Shown: one piece after another, positions 1-6,125 of the stretch
How positions within the stretch are numbered: position 1 is the first letter of the stretch
Layout: each line of letters starts with the position of its first letter
Source of the DNA: a virus
Lineage: Duplodnaviria; Heunggongvirae; Uroviricota; Caudoviricetes
Virus record (IMG/VR): IMGVR_UViG_2734482594_000015
Length of the DNA: 6,125 nt
Strand: one strand, 5' to 3'
Position numbers and translations under genes: made by a program
Notes under the pieces: model-generated
Told to the model about the DNA's origin: nothing
What the model saw: the letters and a program-made list of their open reading frames with translations, nothing else
Database searches by the model: none

Positions 1-77
1 CTTTCTGGTGTGAGAACCTTAAGGAAACAACATGTTGGGTGGAGCGGACAATCCAAATGGCGAATTACCGTCTTATA

Positions 78-404
78 TCACTGGCGCTGACACTTCATCA
101 CCTCCGGACGTAAATCACCATCCTTTGGTGCATTCAGAAACGCGTTCAGTGTCCCCGGTGCATCAGTCGGTGCCACATCAATATCCCCGACACGGGTTGG
201 CTGCCAGCCGTTACAGTGAAGCGCAACCTCGTAATACCCCGGCTCAGCCTCAATCACATAAGCACCGTTATTGTCCGTCACGCAAGTGGCAACAACGTGT
301 GCCACAACGGTCGGACTGGTTCTTCTGGCCCGCAGTTCAATCGCACAATTTACGACAGGTTTACCCGCCCCATCTTTCAGTACACCTGAAATCTTTACTG
401 CCAT
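78..404 (-). CDS. stf: Side tail fibre (Stf-like) N-terminal domain fragment, truncated after about 108 aa
   Basis: Minus-strand ORF with ATG at 404-402 and TGA at 80-78. The product MAVKISGVLKDGAGKPVVNCAIELRARRTSPTVV...PGTLNAFLNAPKDGDLRPEV resembles the N-terminus of lambda Stf as I recall it (MAVKISGVLKDGTGKPVQNCTIQLKARR...PGTLNDFL...DDARPEV). It sits 63 nt downstream of lom, matching the lambda lom-stf spacing. The ORF track's longer start at 446 adds MTARWFRRAFCGVN, which has no counterpart in Stf and would overlap the hairpin at 421-440. Full-length Stf proteins are several hundred aa, so this is a fragment. Confidence 0.55.
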   Translation of the reverse strand: MAVKISGVLKDGAGKPVVNCAIELRARRTSPTVVAHVVATCVTDNNGAYVIEAEPGYYEVALHCNGWQPTRVGDIDVAPTDAPGTLNAFLNAPKDGDLRPEVMKCQRQ

Positions 405-415
405 ATTCACCCCAC

Positions 416-440
416 AAAAAGCCCGCCTGAACCAGCGGGC
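416..440 (-). terminator. Candidate intrinsic terminator downstream of lom
   Basis: On the minus strand: GCCCGC, loop TGGTTCAG, GCGGGC (6-bp GC-rich stem, plus-strand 421-440) followed directly by TTTTT (plus-strand 416-420). It lies between the lom stop and the stf-like start. Confidence 0.4.
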
Positions 441-467
441 AGTCATAACACTGTGTTACCTGGCTAA

Positions 468-1514
468 TCAGAACTTATAACCGACACCCACGATGAAACC
501 GTCAGTGCGCCAGTCACCACTGCCGGAACCTTCATAAGCAAGGTCAATGGCCACGGATTCGGTCGGGTTAAACTGCACGCCAGCCCCCCACGCCAGAGAC
601 GTGTTGCTGTGGCGACCGTCATCACTTCCGGTCAGCACATCGTGCGTTTTCCCCTTGTTGTCAGTTACGCGGAGATAATCCCCGGAGAAAGTCGACACAC
701 GGCTGTAAGCCACACCCGCCATCGCATACGCGCTGAACCANNNNNNNNNNNNNNNNNNNNNNNNNNNNNNNNNNNNNNNNNNNNNNNNNNNNNNNNNNNN
801 NNNNNNNNNNNNNNNNNNNNNNNNNNNNNNNNNNNNNNNNNNNNNNNNNNNNNNNNNNNNNNNNNNNNNNNNNNNNNNNNNNNNNNNNNNNNNNNNNNNN
901 NNNNNNNNNNNNNNNNNNNNNNNNNNNNNNNNNNNNNNNNNNNNNNNNNNNNNNNNNNNNNNNNNNNNNNNNNNNNNNNNNNNNNNNNNNNNNNNNNNNN
1001 NNNNNNNNNNNNNNNNNNNNNNNNNNNNNNNNNNNNNCGCCAGAGACGTGTTGCTGTGGCGACCGTCATCACTTCCGGTCAGCACATCGTGCGTTTTCCC
1101 CTTATTGTCAGTTACGCGGATATAATCCCCGGAAAAAGTCGACACACGGCTGTAAGCCACGCCCGCCATCGCATACGCGCTGAACCATTCATTCACGCGC
1201 ACAGACGGCCCCGCCATCACGCTGAACCAGCGGTTACGCACGGAATCCTCATGCCAGCGGGTATCGCTGTAACGGGTAAGCTGGCGATTCTTGTCTCCTG
1301 CATAGCTGAATGACGTCACCAGCCCCAGCGTATCCGTAAACTCATAACGGTATTTCACGTTAATGCCCTTCAGGTCATCGCTGCCTGGCATATCAGTATG
1401 GGTCTGAAGATACCCGGCGCTCAGCGTGGACTGATGTTCAGACGCCCATGCAGGCGCACCGGATACGGCCAGACAGATGGCTGCGGACAAAATGGCTGCA
1501 CAAACTTTACGCAT
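468..1514 (-). CDS. lom: Lom outer membrane protein (Ail/Lom/OmpX/PagC family beta-barrel); reading frame interrupted by an N-run and an internal 150-bp duplication
   Basis: ATG at 1514-1512, TGA at 470-468. A GAGAGG Shine-Dalgarno lies 5 nt upstream of the ATG. The N-terminus [28 protein letters not shown] is a typical signal peptide with an AxA cleavage site, and the C-terminus ...[10 protein letters not shown] ends in Phe as outer-membrane barrels usually do. The sequence closely resembles lambda Lom as I recall it. The 348-codon ORF is inflated by 297 N plus a repeated 150-nt segment; removing 447 nt gives about 199 aa, near the ~206 aa I recall for lambda Lom. Confidence 0.85.
591..740. 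repeat. Direct repeat copy A (150 bp) abutting the left edge of the N-run inside lom
   Basis: 591-740 matches 1038-1187 with 4 mismatches in 150 nt (for example ccccttgttg vs ccccttattg, gcggagataa vs gcggatataa). Both copies encode [22 protein letters not shown](L/I)[27 protein letters not shown] in the lom frame. Confidence 0.9.
741..1037. other. Run of 297 N (assembly gap or masked sequence) inside lom
   Basis: Directly visible. Its length is a multiple of 3, and the track shows the lom frame continuing through it as X. Confidence 1.
1038..1187. repeat. Direct repeat copy B (150 bp) abutting the right edge of the N-run inside lom
   Basis: Partner of 591-740, beginning exactly at the first non-N base after the gap. 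Confidence 0.9.
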
Positions 1515-1519
1515 AATTA

Positions 1520-1525
1520 CCTCTC
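1520..1525 (-). promoter_or_regulatory. Shine-Dalgarno sequence of lom
   Basis: Minus-strand GAGAGG with a 5-nt spacer (TAATT) before the lom ATG at 1514. Confidence 0.5.
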
Positions 1526-1535
1526 GCTTTTCTGC

Positions 1536-1562
1536 AATAAAAAAGGCACCATTTCTGGTGCC
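1536..1562 (-). terminator. Candidate intrinsic terminator between J and lom
   Basis: On the minus strand: GGCACC, loop AGAAAT, GGTGCC (plus-strand 1545-1562) followed directly by TTTTTTATT (plus-strand 1536-1544). It lies in the 67-nt J-lom intergenic region; there is no T-run on the other strand. Confidence 0.45.
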
Positions 1563-1581
1563 CGTATCTGGGTTATAAAAT

Positions 1582-4500
1582 TCAGCTAATCGTGATGCCT
1601 GCAGTGGCTTTCTTCATCACCACAACCAGCAAATCGCTGATACTTGCTGTGGGATACCAGCCATTTACCAGCCATGCCGATACAGAAAACTCCAGCGTCA
1701 TGTGACCGTGACCGGCAGGCATATCAATAACACCCGTATATATCAGCGTATTATCCAGGGTCGTTCGGTTATAAATTTCAGCACCGTTTTTCTTCACTAT
1801 CAGGCGGCATGACGAATAAATATTGTTATTCTTCCGCTCATGTTTAGCACCGCGAAACGCCACCGCGGGAATAACAATTTGCCGATCAAACGGCTGATCG
1901 TCATAAACCCTGACGGTAATGGTCCCTGATGGCCACCTCTCCGGTGCCCGGGAGTCCCGTGGGAAAGGTTTGCCCACTGTTTTAACGAGATCGCCTTCAA
2001 TCTGGTTCGCGGACAATTTTCCCAGAACCCGACAGTTCTTATTAATCGTGACGTTGTTGAGCGTCCCGGAGTTCGCGTTCACGTTACCGCTGATATCGGC
2101 ATTTTTCGCCGTCAGCCGTCCGCCAGGTGTCAGGGAAAATGCCGGAGGATTACCGCCGCTGGTAATGGTCGGAGCCGTCAGGCATTTCAGGAACACGTCG
2201 TTCATGAATATCTGATCGCCCTGACCAACAAACATCGGCTTTGTGTTGCCATTCGCAGGATTAATCATCGCAATCCTGTCTGCCGCCAGCAGCACCTGAC
2301 TCTGCATTCCTGCTGGCGTATTCTCAATACCGGCACCGATACCCGCAATATAAAGGCGTCCGTCCTTCATCTGTTGCAGCTTCACAGCCCACATGCTGTT
2401 CAGGTTATTATTTGTATCAACCTGAACTTTCTGTATCTGCTGGATTGCAGCACTCTGATTTTCCAGTTTTTTATTGACGGTTTGCGTGATTTCATTGCTG
2501 ACATTCGTAATGGACGTCCTGATTTCAGTCAGGTCCGGCGCAAGCTGACCGTTATCAATCTGCGTCCACAACTCCTTGCCGAGATGCGTTTTATTGATCA
2601 ACCCTTTATAAAAATTCAGATAACCTTCTGCATCATCGCTCGCCCGACCGATGGCCTCCACAAATGCCGATTTGCCAACGGTGTTCACACTGCGAACGTA
2701 AAAATAATAATCATGGCCCGGCCTGATATTGATACTGGCGGCTATCCAGTACAGCGCCGTGCCAAGATAGCGGGCGCTGGTTTCAACCTGCCTGATATCC
2801 GCAATCCGCTTTTCCGAAAACCAGAACTCAAACTGCACCGTCGGGTCATATACAGCCAGTTTCGGGACCGCCGTTATCTGAAAATACCCCGGTATCAGTT
2901 CAATAGTGACAGGCGCTGCCGGTGCCGCAATCCGGAACGATACCGACGCCGGATCGCCCTGCTGCCCCCGGGCATTTACCGCCCGGACTGTCAGACTGTA
3001 ATTCCCCAGCGCCAGCTGCCTGAAGCGGTATGTGGTTTCCGTCGTCCTGGCTGTGCTGACCAGCCGCTCACTGCCGTCGTCCGCTGCCACGGTCAGGCGA
3101 AGCAGGAAGCTCACACCCTTCACCACCTTCGGCGTGTCCCATCGCGCCAGCACCTGATATTCCCCGCTGTCTGCGGTGACTTCGGCGGTCAGATGCTGCA
3201 CCGCTGGCGGCGTGACACCATTCACCGTGCCGCGCCGGTCACCGTCAAAGTGTGCCCCGTTATCCACGATGGCCTCTTTTTCCGGCACATGCTGCACGGC
3301 GGTGATGGCATACGTGCCGTCGTCGTTCTCACGGATACTCACGCAGCGGAACAGACGCTGGCGCAGCGTCGGCAGCTTCAGCCCCCACACGCTGTATTCT
3401 GCAACGCCGTCAGGAACCCGGCTCACTTTCACCTTCACGCCGTCGGTGACGGACTGGACCTCCACGCTGACCGGATTGCCACTTCCGTCAACCAGGCTTA
3501 TCAGCGTGGTACCGGAGGACGGCAGCGTGATTTCACGGTCGAGCGTCAGCGTCCGGGTCTGGCTGTTCACCGCCAGTACGCGACCACCGGTGCTGATACC
3601 GGCATAATCATCATCGCAGATTTCAATGACATCACCCGGTACATGGCGAAGCCCTTCTGCGCCCACGCTGAAGTCCACGGTCTGCGTTTCCAGCAGTTCC
3701 GTTTTAATCAGCCACAGCCCGGCTCGGTGTGCCTGCCCCCGGCTGGTACAGCCAAAGGCATCCATCTTCGTGACATTACGACCGTAACGGGCAATGGCCT
3801 GCGTATCCTCCACAAGCTCTGTCGCCGTCTCCCAGCCGTTATCTGGGTCAATCCAGTTCACCTCAACGGCATTATGGCGGTCCTTCAGGGCGCTGAAGCT
3901 GTAGCGGAACGGCGCGCCATCGTCCGGCATCACCACATTACTGCGGTTATAGGTCCACACCTTATCCGACGGTCGGTCCTGCACGAACGTCAGCATCTGT
4001 CCGTTCCATACCGGCATACAGCGCATCGCCGAGCAGAAATCACTGAGAACATCCCACGCCTTACGCTGTGTGGTCAGGTAAGAGTTACAGGTGATGCGCG
4101 GCTCCGTGCCGCCAAATCCGTCCGTCACTGACTGGTCGCAGTACTGGCCGATGACATACAGCGCCCATTTGTCCACATCTGCCGCACCAAGACGTTTCCC
4201 CATGCCGTAGCGCGGATGAGTGAGCATGTCCCACAGACACCAGGCCATGTTGTTGCTGTATGCTGGCTTAAGCGTTCCGTCCCAGATACCGCTGTATTGC
4301 CGCGTCTGCGGGTTATAGTTCGACGGCACCTGCAGAATGCGCCCGCGAAGATGATAATTGCGACTCACCTGCTGGTTACCGAACTGCTCTGAATCCACCT
4401 GCACGCCGACCAGCGCCGTGTTCGGGTAGCACTGTTTCACATCGATGATTTCGGTGTACGACGACCAGAGCGTTTTGTTCTGCAGCTGGTCTGTGGTGCT

Positions 4501-5061
4501 GTCCGGTGTCATCCTGCGCATCCGGATATTAAACGGGCGCGGCGGCAGGTTACCCACCACCACCGAGGCCAGATACTGCGAAGTGGTTTTGCCCTTAATG
4601 GTGATGTCTTTTTCCGTCACCCAGCCACCGTTACGCTGTATCTGAACCAGCAGGCGGACTTCCGACGGATTCCGGTCACCCTTTGAGGTGGTTTCCACCA
4701 GTGCCTGCACACCGAAGGTCAGGCGCAGACGGTCGATGTTTGCCGACGTGATGGTCCGGGTGATCGGCGTGTCATATTTCACTTCCGTACCCAGCACCGT
4801 CTCGGAGCCGGAGGATTCAAAACCCTCCGGCGGTGTCTGCTCCTGCTCACCTGCACGGAACACCACCGTAACACCGGAAAAGTTTGTCTTCCCCTCGCTG
4901 TCCAGGACCGGCGTACCGTTCAGCAGCACGCTTTTTAATCCATCCACCGGACCGTCAACCGGCCCTTCGCTGATGGCATCAATCACACTCAGCAACTGCG
5001 TGGATTTCAGGTTGTCCTTCGCTTCGCGCGGGGTATGCCCCTTACTGCTGCCTTTACCCAT
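1582..5061 (-). CDS. J: Tail tip host specificity protein J (central tail fibre), 1159 aa
   Basis: Uninterrupted 3480-nt minus-strand ORF with ATG at 5061-5059 and TGA at 1584-1582. GAGG lies just upstream of the ATG. The N-terminus [34 protein letters not shown]... and most of the first ~810 residues closely match lambda gpJ (1132 aa) as I recall it. The C-terminal ~345 residues are homologous but clearly diverged. Confidence 0.95.
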
Positions 5062-5102
5062 TCCTCACGCTCCATAAACGACAAAACCGCCCGCAGGCGG
5101 TT

Positions 5103-5804
5103 TCACATAAAACATTTTGCATCAGCGACCAANNNNNNNNNNNNNNNNNNNNNNNNNNNNNNNNNNNNNNNNNNNNNNNNNNNNNNNNNNNNNNNNNNNN
5201 NNNNNNNNNNNNNNNNNNNNNNNNNNNNNNNNNNNNNNNNNNNNNNNNNNNNNNNNNNNNNNNNNNNNNNNNNNNNNNNNNNNNNNNNNNNNNNNNNNNN
5301 NNNNNNNNNNNNNNNNNNNNNNNNNNNNNNNNNNNNNNNNNNNNNNNNNNNNNNNNNNNNNNNNNNNNNNNNNNNNNNNNNNNNNNNNNNNNNNNNNNNN
5401 NNNNNNNNNNNNNNNNNNNNNNNATTACTCGCCATAATTCCTACCCCCGGCATCCATATAGCAACCGCCATAACAGCCGCCCCCAGCACCGCCTGAAACA
5501 CACCGCCACTTTTAGCTCCCACCAGACGCGGTACTATGTGGATCACTGCACCATTTGCCAGCGGCTCATTAAGACGGGCAGACAATTCGGTTTCACCTGC
5601 ATCACGCCCGGCAATGCGCACCTGATACCAGCCGTCACTCAGTTTCTGACGAAACGCCGGGAGCTGTGTGGCCAGTGCCCGGATGGCTTCAGCCCCCGTT
5701 TTCACACGAAGGTCGATGCGGCGACCAAATCGTTGTAAATCCCCGTAAAGGCAGATGCGCGCCATGCCCGGTGACGCCAGAGGGAGTGTGTGCGTCGCTG
5801 CCAT
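5103..5804 (-). CDS. I: Tail assembly protein I; central part hidden by an N-run
   Basis: ATG at 5804-5802. The N-terminal 127 aa (MAATHTLPLASPGMARICLYGDLQRFGRRIDLRVKTGAEAIRALATQLPAFRQKLSDGWYQVRIAGRD...) resemble lambda gpI. The start overlaps the 3' end of K as in lambda. The stop at 5105-5103 is only valid if the 291-nt N-run (97 codons) preserves the true length and frame; the resulting 233 codons compare with about 223 in lambda. Confidence 0.75.
   Translation of the reverse strand: MAATHTLPLASPGMARICLYGDLQRFGRRIDLRVKTGAEAIRALATQLPAFRQKLSDGWYQVRIAGRDAGETELSARLNEPLANGAVIHIVPRLVGAKSGGVFQAVLGAAVMAVAIWMPGVGIMASNXXXXXXXXXXXXXXXXXXXXXXXXXXXXXXXXXXXXXXXXXXXXXXXXXXXXXXXXXXXXXXXXXXXXXXXXXXXXXXXXXXXXXXXXXXXXXXXXXLVADAKCFM
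5133..5423. other. Run of 291 N (assembly gap or masked sequence) inside I
   Basis: Directly visible. Its length is a multiple of 3. No duplicated flanks were detected. Confidence 1.
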
Positions 5805-6125
5805 TTGTCGGTGTACCTCTCTCGTTTGCTCAGTTGTTCAGGAATATGGTGCAGCAGCCCGCCGTCACCGCAGTAAATGGCGGCATGATTCGGCACCGAT
5901 GAACCAAAACAGCACAGCAGCACATCGCCCGGCTGTGCCTCTGTCAGTGCGACACGGTAAAAACCCGTCACCTCCATATTGTCAAGATAGAGATTCTGAC
6001 CGTTACGCCACCAGTCATCCCCGCGATGAAAATCCGGCATCTCAATCCCTGCCAGATGATAAGCATCCCGGAACAGCGTGTAACAGTCCGTCACCCCGTG
6101 CTCAAAGCGCCGCCCGGTGAGATGC
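5702..6125 (-). CDS. K: Tail tip assembly protein K, C-terminal (NlpC/P60-like) part; 5'-partial, start lies beyond the window
   Basis: The minus-strand frame is open from the window edge to TGA at 5704-5702. The translation ...HLTGRRFEHGVTDCYTLFRDAYHLAGIEMPDFHRGDDWWRNGQNLYLDN...WRHRAWRASAFTGIYNDLVAASTFV matches the C-terminal half of lambda gpK as I recall it. The M at 6094 in the ORF track is an internal GTG (Val) codon, not a start. Confidence 0.85.
   Translation of the reverse strand, partial: HLTGRRFEHGVTDCYTLFRDAYHLAGIEMPDFHRGDDWWRNGQNLYLDNMEVTGFYRVALTEAQPGDVLLCCFGSSVPNHAAIYCGDGGLLHHIPEQLSKRERYTDKWQRRTHSLWRHRAWRASAFTGIYNDLVAASTFV

Follow-up and report, generated by a model that had tools for sequence, protein, structure and literature searches.

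In a virus record of the Caudoviricetes (IMG/VR record IMGVR_UViG_2734482594_000015), the gene lom is interrupted by a run of Ns and the same 150 nt stand on both sides of that run. This raises the question whether lom carries an internal duplication in this genome or whether the repeat was produced during assembly. The analysis covered the whole stretch of 6,125 nt, termed the window below. The repeat is almost certainly an assembly artefact, formed by two overlapping contig ends that were not merged, and the real gene an ordinary single-copy lom.

Organization of the window

Four genes (lom, J, I and the 3' part of K) and one stf fragment are encoded on the minus strand (Table 1). The gene order J-lom-stf is that of lambda, and the same order is found in annotated relatives. 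Terminator-like hairpins are located 3' of J (1563–1544) and 3' of lom (440–421). A protein identical to J is indexed in 1582 assembly-collection blocks, including chromosomes of ~4.8 Mb such as CP019689, which belongs to Shigella sonnei 75/02 (PMC5447701). In complete S. sonnei-type genomes IS elements lie on both sides of the module, and a single lom of 199 aa follows directly after J.

The tail-fibre gene stf is shortened to 122 aa, a truncation that is specific to the lineage, and IS elements lie close to it in the complete genomes. E. coli relatives, in which stf encodes 470 aa, align only from window position 93 onwards, so that window 1–92 is left uncovered by them; S. sonnei-type loci align from base 1. 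The finished genome of S. sonnei 75/02 (L127/L128, CP019689) has a large duplication, as it comprises two whole copies of the M-L-K-I-J-lom module, which lie 9417 bp apart with IS elements in between.

Table 1. Features of the window and of related draft contigs. Positions refer to the window unless a contig is named.
Feature	Position	Strand	Remark
Truncated tail-fibre (stf) N-terminal fragment, 122 aa	78..446	-	PF08400
lom, gap-interrupted	468..1514	-	ORFs and Ail_Lom match
lom 3' part, Lom residues ~110–199 and stop	468..740	-	on contig A
Repeat copy 1, 150 nt	591..740	.	right end of contig A (window 1–740)
Gap-adjacent tract of contig A	619..740	.	departs from S. sonnei locus at 619, 690, 714; bases known in paralogs
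Scaffold gap, 297 N	741..1037	.	true contig-end distance -150, i.e. overlap
Repeat copy 2, 150 nt	1038..1187	.	left end of contig B (window 1038–5132)
Gap-adjacent tract of contig B, fine mosaic	1038..1332	.	26 aligned positions off S. sonnei locus
lom 5' part, Lom residues 1–159	1038..1514	-	on contig B
Tail-tip gene J, 1159 aa	1582..5061	-	identical protein in relatives
Tail-assembly gene I, interrupted by second gap	start 5705, stop 5122	-	annotation in relatives
Second scaffold gap, 291 N, inside gene I	5133..5423	.	stands for 250 real bases
K (NlpC/P60), 3' part only	right end of window	-	
lom duplications in N-free drafts	L143 3358–3717; L142 3354–3713; L144 665–1120		

The repeat and the gap in lom

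A repeat search detected a single family of direct repeats in the window, namely 591–740 and 1038–1187 (150 nt, 97% identity, spacing 447 nt). The two copies are identical at 146 of 150 positions, an agreement that is far beyond chance. The mismatches (copy 1/copy 2) are G>A at 657/1104, G>T at 674/1121, G>A at 687/1134 and A>G at 714/1161. There is no unique sequence between either copy and the Ns; both copies touch the N-run directly. The junction of the putative tandem duplication is therefore the N-run and not the uninterrupted sequence by which a genuine intragenic duplication would be recognized.

The N-run, the 150-bp copies and the four mismatches had been described in the first-pass annotation, and recomputation of the coordinates and of the comparison reproduced this description in every detail. 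Its reading of three mismatches as synonymous and one as a change of Leu to Ile also holds, as a single residue distinguishes the two collapsed Lom proteins (GDYLRV versus GDYIRV).

lom as a single-copy gene

When the Ns and one of the copies are deleted, an ORF of 600 nt encoding 199 aa is obtained. The collapsed product matches the Pfam family Ail_Lom (PF06316) over positions 1–199 of 199 with a score of 410 bits (cut-off 23), and lom is annotated at 600 nt in relatives. After this collapse, no missing part of lom is left for the gap to hold.

In BLAST alignments with E. coli FDAARGOS_944 and CFSAN029787, the intervals that correspond to window segments 93–740 and 1038–5132 overlap, sharing exactly 150 nt. 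The identical overlap is present at ten loci of large S. sonnei-type assemblies (nine are complete chromosomes) and in the N-free IMG/VR contigs L136 and L137, i.e. at all 14 loci that were aligned across the gap (2 E. coli, 10 S. sonnei-type, 2 IMG/VR). Furthermore, the corresponding span is 447 nt shorter in 28 of 28 E. coli genomes covering at least 80% of window 1–2000. The 447-nt lom duplication did not recur in the relatives examined, including S. sonnei-type chromosomes with an identical J. Among 2.9 million IMG/VR contigs scanned there were zero occurrences of the reversed order (...GAACCA, 285–310 nt, CGCCAG...); the normal GAACCA/CGCCAG order was found in at least 120 stretches. No record matched the X-containing ORF of 348 aa, and a degenerate 97-mer, scanned for exact matches in the genome contig collection, likewise gave no hit. 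The real locus is one lom of 600 nt; the genome lacks the 447 extra positions (297 N and 150 nt).

No natural lom identical to the collapsed gene was found; in complete E. coli genomes, full-length matches reach at most 97.5%. Both versions of the collapsed Lom protein are absent among ~15 billion proteins, although the neighbouring J is widely indexed.

Length of the N-runs

The second gap of the window (5133–5423) is not flanked by a repeat. All relatives have 250 nt at this site of gene I, whereas the window has 291 N. With the 291 N, gene I comprises 584 nt and is out of frame; with 250 nt it comprises 543 nt, which is its annotated length. As written, gene I is frameshifted and the ORF listing gives a spurious read-through product of 233 aa. 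Since 291 N stand for 250 real bases, the lengths of the N-runs are size estimates of the scaffolder. Thus, the divisibility of 447 by 3 is a mere coincidence and has no value as evidence. The possibility that the N-runs mask real sequence of equal length was ruled out by the second run, which exceeds the real sequence by 41 nt and puts gene I out of frame.

Origin of the contig ends

Window segments 1–618, 1333–5132 and 5424–6125 have 0 mismatches to L125 (CP180008) and L127 (CP019689). In complete S. sonnei chromosomes, these segments lie together in a single contiguous stf'-lom-J-I-K locus. Every deviation from L125 and L127 is confined to the gap-adjacent tracts 619–740 and 1038–1332, and the sites in contig B lie within 1066–1332. 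The adjacency of stf', lom and J is also found in L136, L137, contig 2 of L099 and two E. coli genomes. As the outer parts match a single contiguous S. sonnei locus at 100% identity, the scaffold has its pieces in the correct order, and contamination or chimerism is limited to the contig ends.

The draft S. sonnei scaffold L138 (CXOB01000001.1) contains at least three lom copies besides the one of its J-1159 module. These are lom2, located beside a J of 1165 aa, c1, a remnant with an 85-bp deletion, and lom4, located beside IS1. With the exception of A at 1278, all deviating gap-adjacent bases of the window occur in these other copies. The end of contig A (591–740) has 1 mismatch to lom2, and a site-by-site table shows the paralog bases T619, A690 and A714 mixed with locus-compatible ones. 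Copy 1 matches, at 100% identity, a natural lom allele that is common among IMG/VR prophage contigs. Contig B, on the other hand, has only 3 mismatches to c1 over 303 nt (positions 1161, 1248 and 1278 within 1038–1340), compared with 26 differing aligned positions to the lom of the locus itself. Positions 1066–1137 are c1-like, including the A, T and A that set contig B apart from contig A. The sequence is locus-like at 1161 and 1248, paralog-like at 1273–1332 with a private A at 1278, and locus-like again from 1365. The exact allele of contig B is absent from IMG/VR.

All four variant bases recur as natural polymorphisms among the 120 IMG/VR lom copies listed. Sequencing errors were ruled out as a source of the four mismatches, since the bases recur among these listed copies and are present in S. 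sonnei paralogs. The switching between parents within 300 nt and the absence of both collapsed proteins among the ~15 billion indicate that the contig ends are chimeric and do not represent a circulating lom allele. The proposal of the first-pass annotation that the ends carry distinct lom alleles from other prophage copies is thus supported by the paralog bases in L138, apart from A at 1278.

In the c1 allele, 85 bp are lost between two CGCCAG hexamers (window 506–511 and 591–596). This deletion cuts Lom after residue 159 (...SLAH*) and gives rise to a pseudogene variant. The deletion allele was observed in five independent contigs (L099 at 4567, L095, L058, L043 and L033). The first base of contig B is exactly the CGCCAG junction where c1 diverges from intact lom. 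Going leftwards, reads of c1 and of intact lom part at 591, which makes this position a branch point where an assembler or gap filler would stop. At the end of contig A (740) no structural branch was found; the next polymorphism in the matching allele lies 13 nt beyond.

Paralogous lom-J contigs are strung together by single-N joins in the IMG/VR scaffolds L099, L133 and L134, which derive from isolate genomes. One single-N join in IMG/VR starts in lom at the window-equivalent position 1074, and lom is accordingly a recurrent break point in short-read assemblies.

Proposed course of the assembly

The source is most probably a short-read scaffold of a Shigella sonnei-type genome that covers a degraded lambdoid prophage tail module (stf'-lom-J-I-K). 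In such genomes lom is present in multiple copies. The assembler or a gap-filling step would have broken within lom, and each contig end would have run into the shared lom region via reads or graph paths of paralogous copies. The resulting ends would overlap by 150 nt but, differing at 4 sites, would not have been merged. The scaffolder or gap filler would have set the contigs in the right order and written an estimated 297 N between them.

GapFiller works inwards from both edges of a gap; closure requires that the two extensions overlap and that the filled size deviates from the estimate by no more than 50 nt (PMC3446322). A two-sided extension of this type, with closure rejected on account of a size disagreement, would give exactly such a picture. 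The responsible software step was deduced, whereas the overlap, the single copy in relatives, the full identity of the outer parts to the S. sonnei locus, the paralog bases and the wrong length of the second gap were observed. Points against the account are the size of the error, with +297 estimated for a true distance of -150, the lack of a structural branch at 740 and the occurrence of in-frame tandem duplications of lom in N-free drafts. An unmerged contig overlap with a gap placed by the scaffolder had already been suggested in the first-pass annotation, and the complete collapsed gene, the single-copy relatives and the wrong length of the second gap agree with it.

Alternative explanations

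If lom contained a real in-frame tandem duplication of 447 nt whose middle 297 nt were unsequenced or masked, a Lom of ~348 aa with a repeated segment of the barrel would result. Such a duplication would be consistent with 447 being a multiple of 3, and in-frame tandem-duplicated Lom proteins do occur, if rarely, in N-free draft contigs (P0001 with 275 aa and P0002 with 259 aa, arising from perfect repeats of 228 and 180 nt). However, an in-frame length is meaningless when the lengths of the N-runs are unreal (291 versus 250), none of the relatives, including S. sonnei-type chromosomes with identical J, has the duplication, and the arrangement is absent from IMG/VR. The repeats are placed exactly at the edges of the gap, contig B starts at the deletion junction of a paralog and the two copies bear the bases of different paralogs, which is unlike a fresh duplication. 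A real duplication therefore has next to no probability. Mis-scaffolding, by contrast, would mean that contig A (stf' and the lom 3' end) and contig B (the lom 5' end and J) come from two prophages and are not neighbours, and the first-pass annotation had indeed considered that the left and right parts of the window may not adjoin. The differing lom alleles of the two ends point in this direction, as do the presence of several lom-J modules per S. sonnei-type genome, the doubled module of S. sonnei 75/02 and the N-free contig L134, in which the same stf' is joined to a paralog-type lom. The expectation was not borne out, since the unique parts of the two contigs (1–618 and 1333–5132) show 100% identity to a single contiguous locus in complete S. 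sonnei chromosomes. Their order and orientation are those this locus predicts, and the adjacency is repeated in L136, L137, L099 contig 2 and the two E. coli genomes. Mis-scaffolding is thus extremely improbable.

Part of the divergence next to the gap could be real if a gene-conversion tract from a paralogous lom (~619–885 in collapsed coordinates) had caused the assembly to break. N-free relatives do vary at 619, 690 and 714 (TGGGAA in L134, CGGGAA in L135 and TGGGGG in L136), and a natural allele matches the end of contig A at 100% identity. A single tract does not explain two versions of the same 150 nt, however, and contig B, with its private base at 1278, changes its parent allele several times in 300 nt. 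With the collapsed protein found nowhere else, a conversion tract is unlikely, and even if it were true the duplication would stay an artefact. In a wider sense, it is very unlikely that lom of this strain was truly reshaped by exchange with a paralogous prophage lom, be it by a mosaic conversion tract or, less likely, by an in-frame internal duplication. The assembly break would then be a sign of continuing recombination between the outer-membrane genes of S. sonnei prophage remnants.

Consequences for annotation

Taken at face value, the record with its unmerged contig ends yields a false Lom of 348 aa containing a run of X, or split lom fragments, and additionally a frameshifted gene I. Artefacts of the same class have probably already placed false proteins in public databases, the stf::Lom fusions of S. 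sonnei being an example. Proteins in which the stf N-terminus is fused to Lom are encoded in the public S. sonnei drafts L138 (6001–6747, CXOB01000001.1), L139, L140 and L141. The fusions P0019 (222 aa) and P0022 (248 aa) both end with ...SLAH and their ORF crosses a single-N scaffold join. Such fusion genes are probably false and arose in the same way. The value of the present analysis lies in quality control only; there is no new biology, and the lom duplication is not a real feature.

Head-to-tail in-frame duplications of 180 or 228 nt in lom were also observed in N-free E. coli drafts of one DDBJ project (BDJX, BDKO and BDKU; Table 1). The copies are 100% identical in two of the three cases and 99% identical in the third, and the products have 259 and 275 aa. 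These duplications may be real or may be assembler artefacts.

Comparison with known systems

Ko et al. 2022 (PMC9516828) name a gap between duplicate copies on one scaffold as a primary hallmark by which false duplications are recognized. As in the false duplications catalogued by these authors and the Vertebrate Genomes Project, near-identical copies are present on one scaffold with only a gap between them, their collapse restores the canonical gene and they differ slightly because they derive from different templates. The templates in that work are the two haplotypes of a diploid, whereas here they are paralogous prophage genes in a haploid bacterium. In the window, the copies abut the N-run and both map to one interval, the gene is restored by collapse and the length of the gap is unreal. 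Partial filling of the GapFiller type (PMC3446322) predicts duplicated flanks around residual Ns, as found here, and would be the putative mechanism.

Compared with lambda lom and the Ail-Lom family (PF06316), nothing is unusual here apart from the artefact, the allele at the contig ends being probably chimeric. The product of the window is likewise a full-length match to the family and its gene is located between J and stf.
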